This document shows, piece by piece, positions 16,618 to 18,024 of a stretch of 64,000 nt of DNA. Source of the stretch: Schmidtea nova (taxonomy: Eukaryota); NCBI GenBank assembly GCA_044892505.1, contig CM097883.1, forward strand, positions 159,774,001 to 159,838,000, given 5' to 3'. The position numbers were made by a program, and so were the translations under genes. Within the stretch, counting starts at the first letter, position 1; every line of letters starts with the position of its first letter. The notes below the pieces were generated by a model that was not told the DNA's origin, did not search any database, and saw only the letters and a program-made list of their open reading frames with translations.

Positions 16618-18024
16618 TTAATTAAATTTTAATTCCAAGCTCTCTTCTCCACACCAATATTGGACGATTGTTCCTTTTCGCACATATGTCTTTCCTGCAT
16701 ATGTTATCGAATTTTCAATTTGCAAATTTGAACCCACTTTTCTTTTCCTAGTTTCTTTGGCTGTTGAACCCTTTATAAGTGTTGACTTTGCTCTTCCAAT
16801 AATTGAGCTTGTAAATATTGCCAAACTTTCTTCAATGGGCTCCAGAATAGTTTCCTCTGCCAACTTCAATTGTATTTCAATTTCCATTATTGATGGTTCT
16901 TCTATTGTCAGGTCCACTGTTGTTGTCATTTCCGATGTGCTCTGTGTTGCTCGTAAATTTCTGTATTCCTCCAGCGAATATATTTTTGAGGGCTGTTTCC
17001 TGGGAATCATCACATCATCGATCCATTGACTCTCCACTTTCAAATAAACTTTTCTAATGCTTTTCACATCTTCCAACGCGGTGTGGATGCCTGTTTGTGT
17101 TTTTTCTCCGCATAATTCTTCAGTGATTGTTTTTAACTTAAACCATTCTCCTTTTCGGCTTACATTCATTGATTTTAACACTTGCGCTGCTGCCAAATCT
17201 CGAATGCCATATAATTTATTGATCCAAATTCCAAGATTATTCAATTCCGCTTGGAGATCATGACCAATCAGTATTTTTCCTATGGTCAACCTCTGAATAT
17301 CTTTCATCTCCTGATATTGATCTGCCTGATTTCTACTGGCCACTTCCGTTATTCCGTGGATTTTGGAATTAAAATGTCTTACTTTCCCTCTTGGTGTAAT
17401 GTATGTATTTTTTATAATTTTTCCATAATAATTTAGGATTGCGATTGACAACGGAATCATTTTTCCGCTTTCGGAGCTTCCATATTCCGCATCGATAAAC
17501 AAAATTCGATTACGGATTTCTTCTAGATCCATCTCCTTTCTAACAAATGAGAGCTTCCGTTTTAACATTTCATCTGAAATTGCCATCAAATCCTCCTCAT
17601 TAGCTTCTGTCGGATGTGTACTTGGAATTTCTCCAACTTCATTTTCAATTCTGGTTTCGATAACCATTATGGCATCCTCGTTTGCGGCTCGCAACAAATT
17701 GAACATTATTTCCCTCTGCAGTTTCCACGTAGTAAATTTTTTTAATTCCTTCCGAATCTGATTCCTTTCGTTTAGCATTTCTACCGTGCCTTTTATTATG
17801 TGGAGGTAATATTGTTCTTTTCTTGCCAATTGCATTTCCTCTGATAACTTCATTTTGGTGTTTCTGTGCAATTTTAGAATTTGTATTTTCATTCTTCTGT
17901 CATCACTTCGAAGGTAGTTGGGAATTTGCAGATTGTTGTTGATCTGGAATTTTTGTCCGGCATGGCTTCTGCTGAGTCTGGCGTAACTGTCGTGTACCGA
18001 TCTTGGCCATTGTAATTGTTCCAT
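16618..18024 (-). CDS. ORF2 of the element: helical N-terminal region, DEDDh (REX4/ISG20-like) exonuclease domain (~17030-17505), acidic/basic tail
   Basis: ExoI ILFIDAEYG, then SIAILNYYG..NTYITP..HGITE, ExoII LIGHDLQAE, ExoIII HTALED; intact ATG-to-stop 468 aa. Confidence 0.88.
   Translation of the reverse strand: MEQLQWPRSVHDSYARLSRSHAGQKFQINNNLQIPNYLRSDDRRMKIQILKLHRNTKMKLSEEMQLARKEQYYLHIIKGTVEMLNERNQIRKELKKFTTWKLQREIMFNLLRAANEDAIMVIETRIENEVGEIPSTHPTEANEEDLMAISDEMLKRKLSFVRKEMDLEEIRNRILFIDAEYGSSESGKMIPLSIAILNYYGKIIKNTYITPRGKVRHFNSKIHGITEVASRNQADQYQEMKDIQRLTIGKILIGHDLQAELNNLGIWINKLYGIRDLAAAQVLKSMNVSRKGEWFKLKTITEELCGEKTQTGIHTALEDVKSIRKVYLKVESQWIDDVMIPRKQPSKIYSLEEYRNLRATQSTSEMTTTVDLTIEEPSIMEIEIQLKLAEETILEPIEESLAIFTSSIIGRAKSTLIKGSTAKETRKRKVGSNLQIENSITYAGKTYVRKGTIVQYWCGEESLELKFN

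Follow-up and report, generated by a model that had tools for sequence, protein, structure and literature searches.

A stretch of 64,000 nucleotides of the Schmidtea nova genome (assembly GCA_044892505.1, contig CM097883.1, positions 159,774,001 to 159,838,000 of the forward strand; hereafter the window) holds a 15.8-kb element that is a young, envelope (env)-bearing Ty3 long terminal repeat (LTR) retroelement of the Burro type. Downstream of its polyprotein, the element carries a separate open reading frame (ORF) for a DEDDh exonuclease of the REX4/ISG20 type, preceded by a predicted cupin-like domain. It is very probable that the product of this ORF is an active nuclease and that selection on the element maintains it. 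More tentatively, and with rather less than even confidence in the statement as a whole, we propose that the product is a separately expressed, cupin-fused, RNA-binding 3'-5' exonuclease that counters host RNA silencing, keeping the element expressed. Features are located in Table 1.

The exonuclease ORF is a complete ATG-to-stop frame of 1407 nt. As an earlier note, made from the sequence alone, had read them, its ExoI, ExoII and ExoIII motifs are complete, with Glu in ExoII: FIDAEY provides D178 and E180, GHDLQAE provides E260, and HTALED provides H314 and D319 in H-x4-D spacing. E260 aligns with the Asp of ISG20 and ISG20L2, giving the catalytic set DEEDh. The family assignment was likewise upheld, phmmer, profile and structure matches all agreeing on a REX4/ISG20-type DEDDh enzyme. 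The best PDB sequence matches were ISG20L2 (phmmer E 2.6e-5), ISG20 and SDN1, and the match of a 98-row profile, which included 17 added REX4-like rows, had an E of 5e-56. The ORF protein itself gave no Pfam match at E<=0.05; PF00929 was matched by 67 of the 98 aligned relatives, the 17 added rows being counted among them. A structure model of residues 1-345 based on the 98-row alignment was confident (pLDDT 96.2, pTM 0.91); this alignment was needed, a model from only 8 close sequences reaching a pLDDT of 31.7. The top structural match was ISG20 (Z 18.2, root-mean-square deviation (rmsd) 2.3, 160 residues aligned). The nearest folds were ISG20, ISG20L2, PAN2 and small-RNA-degrading nuclease 1, and TREX1 and DnaQ (Z ~12-14) and RNase D (Z 9.3) were matched as well. 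The predicted structure has the RNase H-like core fold of a DEDDh exonuclease. Among 81 family rows, one of which (P0197) grouped with the cellular set in a quick tree, the catalytic pattern was DEEHD in 30, DEDHD in 25, degenerate in 15 and gapped in 11, and among the 17 added REX4-like rows it was DEDHD in 14 and partial in 3. Since DEEHD and DEDHD both occur in such numbers, the Glu of motif II is a variant within the family. It can be reconciled with an active enzyme, for in coronavirus ExoN both Asp and Glu work at this position (PMC7654266).

Selection on the gene was assessed across its copies. At least 91 matches were scored in the genome among 2,847 candidates, a list biased towards the best copies; 70 were without a stop inside the match and 21 had stops. 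Related families were seen at 88-92%, ~67%, 57-59%, 50-53% and 38% identity. Whole family B and family C copies have the order LTR, polyprotein, exonuclease, LTR as well, polyprotein homology was present in the fetched flank of 74 of 79 exonuclease loci, and all 14 elements chosen by env alone (all of one family) carried the exonuclease ORF downstream. The earlier note, which proposed the ratio of nonsynonymous to synonymous substitution rates (dN/dS) across copies as a check, had named neutral decay as an outcome that would count against its reading. Between families decay was refuted, dN/dS of the exonuclease domain being far below 1: 0.089 (confidence interval 0.035-0.147) for the window against locus L042, 0.069 (0.036-0.110) for L031 against L045, and 0.18-0.20 against L036 and L037, with synonymous sites saturated in the wider pairs and intervals including 1 in very close ones. 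All five catalytic residues were kept in 46 of 50 sampled copies. In 30 close copies, changes private to one copy comprised 63 nonsynonymous, 25 synonymous and 3 stops, a near-neutral ratio of 0.68, whereas shared changes comprised 18 nonsynonymous and 17 synonymous, a constrained ratio of 0.29 (Fisher p 0.038 against private). As judged from these substitutions, near-neutral private and constrained shared changes together are the usual pattern of a gene selected during transposition.

Domains of the element were compared between family A, that of the window, and families B and C. Identities to B and C, respectively, were 96 and 90% for reverse transcriptase (RT), 94 and 86% for integrase, 81 and 73% for env, 75 and 51% for protease, 73 and 54% for the exonuclease, 64 and 31% for the cupin-like domain, and 41 and 22% for the tail. 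By this measure the exonuclease is conserved like the protease and not like RT, an accessory-like divergence. The one in-frame fusion of the two proteins found in the genome is a deletion joining polyprotein residues 1-2775 to exonuclease residues 68-468; no fused form was found among proteins of 1198-3420 aa, which is weak evidence.

The second copy of the ORF in the window bears on none of this. The two copies are identical, as first noticed (0 differences in 1407 nt), but they are not two insertions, because the duplicate carries host flank. Positions 1-4465 of the window lie within a near-identical duplicate, offset by ~15,065 bp and beginning ~9.4 kb upstream of the window. Besides ~8.3 kb of host flank, this duplicate contains the 3' LTR and the exonuclease gene, but no more of the polyprotein than its last 362 codons. 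Compared in 500-bp bins, nearly all of it is fully identical. Either a duplication that followed insertion or an artefact of assembly produced it, and the identity of the copies is therefore uninformative on selection. A similar tandem near-identical duplication, with a 10.6-kb offset, was seen in a family B region (G000:C1:173332001-173372000); like that of the window (1-4465 and 5682-19531, offset ~15.07 kb), it includes the 3' part of an element, and both are either real segmental duplications or assembly artefacts. A 51-bp tandem repeat lies in the host flank (window 10115-10584) and recurs in the duplicate upstream of the window.

The part of the protein preceding the nuclease had been described as helical, a description that the model replaces: it shows seven beta-strands of at least three residues between residues 44 and 126, at the overall pLDDT given above, and cupin-type matches. 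Foldseek matches of this barrel, at E ~1e-4, were an HTH_3 regulator, ectoine synthase, cysteine dioxygenase and the Mif2p dimerisation domain, and model residues 9-126 superpose on 2i45 with Z 9.4 and rmsd 3.0 over 93 aligned residues. The N-terminus is thus predicted to be a cupin-type beta-barrel. At sequence level, Pfam scans of the 98 rows gave no cupin match above noise, only a trace of Pirin_C_2 (E 0.13), and an atlas search with residues 20-135 gave no usable match for the origin of the domain. Catalytic cupins bind metal through a His/His/Glu(Asp)/His set. These ligands are not conserved in family rows over residues 40-130, where conservation among the His, Asp and Glu columns is confined to H75 (58 of 64 rows) and E123 (58 of 69). 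As P35, H75 and E123 are the only near-invariant N-terminal residues, the modelled domain probably serves for binding and not as a metalloenzyme. An AlkB-like demethylase, prompted by weak matches to closterovirus polyproteins, was considered and rejected, its metal ligands being missing. The tail evolves fast, and carries what we take to be a motif resembling a SUMO-interaction motif (SIM) and a basic run. Basic runs occur in 30 of 53 family tails of at least 60 aa, against 14.2 expected from shuffles.

The ORF stands apart from the polyprotein ORF, its start region lying 416 bp downstream of it, and is flanked by both LTRs, which bears out its description as a stand-alone gene within an LTR element. 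The single polyprotein comprises Gag with CCHC knuckles, a Monjiviricetes-type fusion glycoprotein, protease, RT, RNase H, integrase and a hydrophobic C-terminal extension. The Env domain (PF24664, E 1e-87, polyprotein residues 1051-1711) lies in frame between gag and pol. The order protease-RT-RNase H-integrase, the LTRs and the target duplication are those of Ty3/gypsy elements. The LTRs are 99.8% identical (blastn), the 4-bp duplication ATCC is present at 13949-13952 and 29766-29769, a primer-binding-site-like 18-mer, shared with families B and C, lies just inside the 5' LTR, and a polypurine tract just inside the 3' LTR. Upstream of env, a Bcl-2-like match is weak and under the cut-off (E 0.033), and two ubiquitin/SUMO-like repeats (window 26031-26843, polyprotein residues 560-830) are a lead only, with atlas scores of ~0.8 and no support from a PDB sequence search. 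Contact between the SIM-like motif of the exonuclease tail and these Gag-side repeats would be a conceivable way of loading the nuclease onto Gag. The post-integrase extension (window 18441-19820, polyprotein residues ~2900-3359) contains a hydrophobic stretch resembling a signal and, at its C terminus, a transmembrane-like segment. It gave no Pfam match, is 62% and 37% identical in families B and C, respectively, and may be a second membrane protein.

Homologues were sought beyond the genome. An exhaustive protein search returned 66 proteins at E<=1e-10, many of them matching the N-terminal part as well, and the names of the 16 family members checked were all uninformative. Identity of the element exonuclease to cellular REXO4, ISG20, ISG20L2 and SDN1 is only ~18-22%. 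A tree of 44 hand-picked domains separated 24 element-type rows from 20 cellular REX4-like rows, the host's own included, with support 100/99, and a quick tree of 164 rows (10 of 174 were dropped for domains under 125 aa) gave the same split; both trees are unrooted, without a REXO1/PAN2 outgroup, and most element-type rows lack a known context. In the phylogenetic check proposed in the earlier note, the family is thereby set apart from the cellular REXO4-like enzymes. The host's REXO4-like gene has an intron, two exons being seen (L100:1459-2356), and L051 is presumably an ERI1-like host gene, to judge from its motifs.

Two metagenome Ty3 elements, L115 and L117, whose RT is 59-60% identical to that of the window, contain ankyrin repeats and tandem exonuclease paralogs, first one without catalytic residues and then an intact one. 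These dead paralogs are as constrained as the live ones (46-51% against 52-54% identity, with synonymous sites saturated) and retain P35, H75, E123 and S159; their equal constraint implies that a binding function is needed. L140, a distant Ty3 copy from the genome of the window whose RT is 52% identical, sits inside a family H copy; downstream of pol it has an 847-aa frame with a dead cupin-exonuclease (L140:6226-8769), the only version in the stretch read. Dead-then-live pairs were located at L115:6861-9920, L117:7268-10371 and L116:49-3018, with pol, a second protease and ankyrin repeats in L115 and L117; in these two a repeated GC-rich motif, CGGTAGGAGGC...CGCCC, occurs twice between the ORFs. 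Twelve metagenome loci in all comprised 2 with pol, 5 with only exonuclease-family or ankyrin ORFs and 5 that were cellular REX4-like. An RNA-virus origin of the ENA homologues, on contigs of 12-17.6 kb, was considered and rejected: two scans of viral contigs were empty, and the readable metagenome contexts, which are other loci than those contigs, are Ty3.

Candidate expression signals precede the ORF. Families A, B, C and F have a GATTGG box with a TATA-like box 45-70 nt downstream, and family H has GATTGG; the GATTGG box is absent at 2 of 11 loci compared and was not found upstream of the metagenome ORFs. The pair of boxes is unique on the sense strand of the element, yet occurs five times across both strands of the window. 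A candidate splice acceptor (TTTTAG, TTTCAG or similar) lies a few bases before the ATG in families A, B, D, F and H, not in C, and immediately before it in L115 and L117. These motifs make it likely that the exonuclease gene is driven by its own internal promoter, and from the acceptors we infer a separate spliced mRNA. One raw RNA run was uninformative either way: of ~12 million records, 300 reads matched, mostly 90-95% alike and on the LTR, with a depth of ~1 or less over the exonuclease ORF and no joints.

Taken with known systems, the element is closest to the planarian Burro and GYPSM1 elements, with which it shares the single polyprotein, the Gag CCHC knuckles, the in-frame mononegavirus-type env, whose position between gag and pol is the Burro hallmark, and accessory ORFs outside the polyprotein (PMC6431247). 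The SUMO/ubiquitin-like and Bcl-2-like parts described for those elements have tentative counterparts here. Burro1 and GYPSM1 proper exceed 30 kb and have BIR and ankyrin domains, whereas the window element measures 15.8 kb, with a 3,359-aa polyprotein that gave no BIR and no ankyrin match in a Pfam scan at E<=0.05; being smaller and without these matches, it is termed Burro-type and not Burro1. The Burro review names exonucleases only for the rotifer Terminons, not for Burro (PMC6431247). In the literature consulted, no DEDDh or cupin-fused exonuclease is described for planarian or Burro elements, and the word 'exonuclease' does not occur in PMC11410931; the original Burro reports may already annotate the ORF.

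Extra exonuclease ORFs in rotifer retroelements had been cited as a precedent. The precedent holds as far as such ORFs go and fails for the enzyme type: the ORF3 of bdelloid rotifer Juno and Vesta LTR elements and Terminons is stand-alone, downstream of pol, changed from DEDD to DEED and drawn from an element pool distinct from host enzymes, as here, but it is DEDDy and RNase D-like (PMC5408684). The window enzyme is DEDDh, of the REX4/ISG20 branch, cupin-fused and found alongside env, an independent capture, and its family further differs by clear purifying selection and dead paralogs. The cellular enzymes REXO4, ISG20, ISG20L2 and plant SDN1 share fold and motifs (Z 18.2, 17.2 and 14.1) and are the best sequence matches, but no cupin-like domain or tail was seen in them, and Glu at motif II belongs to the window protein. 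Coronavirus nsp14 and arenavirus NP are likewise DEDDh enzymes encoded by mobile genomes, nsp14 sharing DEEDh (PMC7654266, PMC7968707); its fold match is weaker (Z 9.8, rmsd 3.9, 162 aligned), and the window protein has no zinc-finger (Cys/His) clusters and lies outside a replicase or nucleoprotein. Stand-alone exonuclease ORFs in LTR elements are thus already known from rotifers, and the cupin-nuclease fusion is apparently undescribed in the literature consulted.

These properties are accommodated by a role against host silencing. An internal promoter would drive a separate spliced mRNA, from which the exonuclease would be made apart from Pol; the tail would provide nuclear import and contact with SUMO, the cupin-like domain would select the target RNA, and the nuclease would trim or sequester host small-RNA precursors, guide RNAs or element-derived double-stranded RNA, dead paralogs acting by binding alone. 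In favour of this scheme, planarian Burro elements are de-repressed on knockdown of a nuclear PIWI protein (PMC8532177), suppression of immunity by a DEDDh fold has a precedent in arenavirus ExoN (PMC7968707), basic runs and SIM-like motifs are commoner in the family tails than expected, and a small-RNA-degrading nuclease is among the near structural relatives.

Several observations weigh against it. SIM-like motifs occur in 12 of 53 family tails of at least 60 aa (1.7 expected from shuffles), but the pattern was composed with the query in view and close families account for 4 of the 12 matches, while families B, C and F gave no match. The very rapid change that a tight arms race would bring is seen in none of the domains, cupin-like domain and exonuclease both being under purifying selection. 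The closest cellular relatives act in ribosomal RNA processing or antiviral decay, not in silencing suppression, and the title of one Foldseek match (7yw5) names processing of internal transcribed spacer 1 (ITS1). Mature PIWI-interacting RNAs (piRNAs) carry a 3' 2'-O-methyl group that hinders many such enzymes. The rotifer study found no clear link of exonuclease ORFs with copy number (PMC5408684). Finally, several rival roles fit the same sequence evidence.

The nuclease could instead process the nucleic acids of the element itself, trimming its genomic or subgenomic RNA at the 3' end or removing leftover primer and abortive cDNA that would alert the host. We regard this as fairly unlikely. 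It would suit the presence of the ORF in every env-picked element, its protease-like constraint and the TREX1 and DnaQ fold matches, and a role of this kind has been proposed for the rotifer ORFs (PMC5408684). It sits poorly with the retention of dead paralogs, of which L140 shows only the dead version, and, the gene being outside the polyprotein, packaging would require an additional step. Most Ty3 elements, moreover, replicate without such a gene.

An ISG20-like restriction factor, degrading RNA of competing viruses or retroelements and so protecting the niche of the element, possibly to the host's benefit, is unlikely in our view. ISG20 being the top structural match speaks for it, fish offer a case in which related DEDDh enzymes hold retroelements in check (PMC10123124), a different accessory domain is reported to make Burro1 beneficial to its host (as cited in PMC13465017), and defence roles of accessory domains have been proposed (PMC6338049). 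No domesticated single-copy version was seen among the sampled loci, however, although five loci without polyprotein homology were not followed up, and copies decay after insertion, with near-neutral private changes and three new stops, which indicates that selection acts through transposing lineages.

A mainly non-catalytic scaffold, in which cupin-like domain, nuclease fold and SUMO-binding tail bind a host chromatin or RNA-processing factor and catalysis is secondary, would explain why the catalytic set is missing in 15 of 70 scorable family rows and why dead paralogs keep their four N-terminal positions under constraint like that of live ones. The remaining 55 of the 70 rows are intact, and D-E-E-H-D is kept in all examined close families despite saturated synonymous sites, which makes the scaffold quite unlikely.

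Proofreading for RT, permitting a large genome in the manner of nidovirus ExoN, had been offered in the earlier note and is now very unlikely. The DEEDh variant is that of coronavirus ExoN (PMC7654266) and the clade includes unusually large elements (PMC6431247), but the gene is a separate ORF outside Pol, and while in nidoviruses ExoN and polymerase are conserved to about the same degree (PMC7968707), the window exonuclease is far less conserved than RT (73% and 54% against 96% and 90%) and conserved like the protease. At 15.8 kb the element is under the 20-kb threshold (PMC7968707), the nearest relatives are RNases and not DNA editors, and dead paralogs are under equal constraint. A host-facing RNA-binding nuclease fits better than a proofreader, because the gene is selected, lies apart from Pol, diverges like an accessory gene and has a function that outlasts catalysis in some paralogs. 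A neutral passenger recently captured from host REXO4 can be dismissed as scarcely credible: the host does have an intron-bearing REXO4-like gene (L100) and stops in 21 of 91 matches show that single copies decay once inserted, but between-family dN/dS far below 1 and the 100/99 separation of element enzymes from the 20 cellular rows refute it, and cupin-like domain and linker are common to the element group.

Table 1. Location of the exonuclease gene, its parts and the surrounding element (window positions, counted from the first letter)
Feature	Position	Strand	Remarks
Accessory ORF, 468 aa	16618..18024	minus	cupin-like domain, linker, DEEDh exonuclease, variable tail
Predicted cupin-type double-stranded beta-helix, residues 1-130	17635..18024	minus	structure model
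REX4/ISG20-type exonuclease domain, residues 171-340	17005..17514	minus	D178 E180 E260 H314 D319
Fast-evolving tail, residues 341-468	16618..17004	minus	presumed SIM-like VDLT plus acidic motif, presumed basic run (RKRK), short conserved C-terminal block
Putative internal promoter	18245..18298	minus	GATTGG (inverted CCAAT-like) 18298-18293, TATA-like box 18250-18245
Putative intron of the 5' untranslated region	18028..18148	minus	GT at 18148; TTTTAG ending at 18028, 4 nt before ATG; inferred
Polyprotein ORF, single, 3,359 aa	18441..28520	minus	
5' LTR, 869 bp	28897..29765	minus	TG..CA
3' LTR, 869 bp	13953..14821	minus	TG..CA
Identical duplicate of the accessory ORF	1552..2958	minus	segmental or assembly duplication, offset ~15.07 kb

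Other mobile elements were noticed nearby or in related copies. Large insertions interrupting family C and D copies (G000:C1:21728001-21768000 and G000:C1:252286001-252316000) carry ATPase-like, capsid-like and ~1,300-aa ORFs, and resemble Polinton/Maverick elements. In the window, DUF4371/hAT-like and Tc3-type transposase fragments (60535-61779 and 48379-48801) are ordinary DNA transposon remnants.

Few enzymatic counter-defences are documented from animal transposons, and the exonuclease ORFs of rotifers are without demonstrated function. The present family is independent, constrained and high in copy number, comes with a confident model and natural dead paralogs, and resides in what is likely a tractable model animal for RNA interference, so that the question of whether animal retroelements encode nucleases against RNA silencing becomes directly testable. 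It also adds an annotation for the accessory ORFs of Burro elements, if one was not already made in earlier Burro papers. In its most far-reaching form, which we hold to be doubtful, the proposal is of an ancient anti-silencing module of the Burro clade: a cupin-targeted DEEDh ribonuclease with its own promoter, a nuclear, SUMO-contacting tail, and live and dead paralogs that would trim or sequester RNAs of the piRNA pathway. On that reading an animal transposon would encode an enzyme that suppresses piRNA silencing, which would be part of the reason why such elements have expanded in PIWI-rich stem-cell animals.

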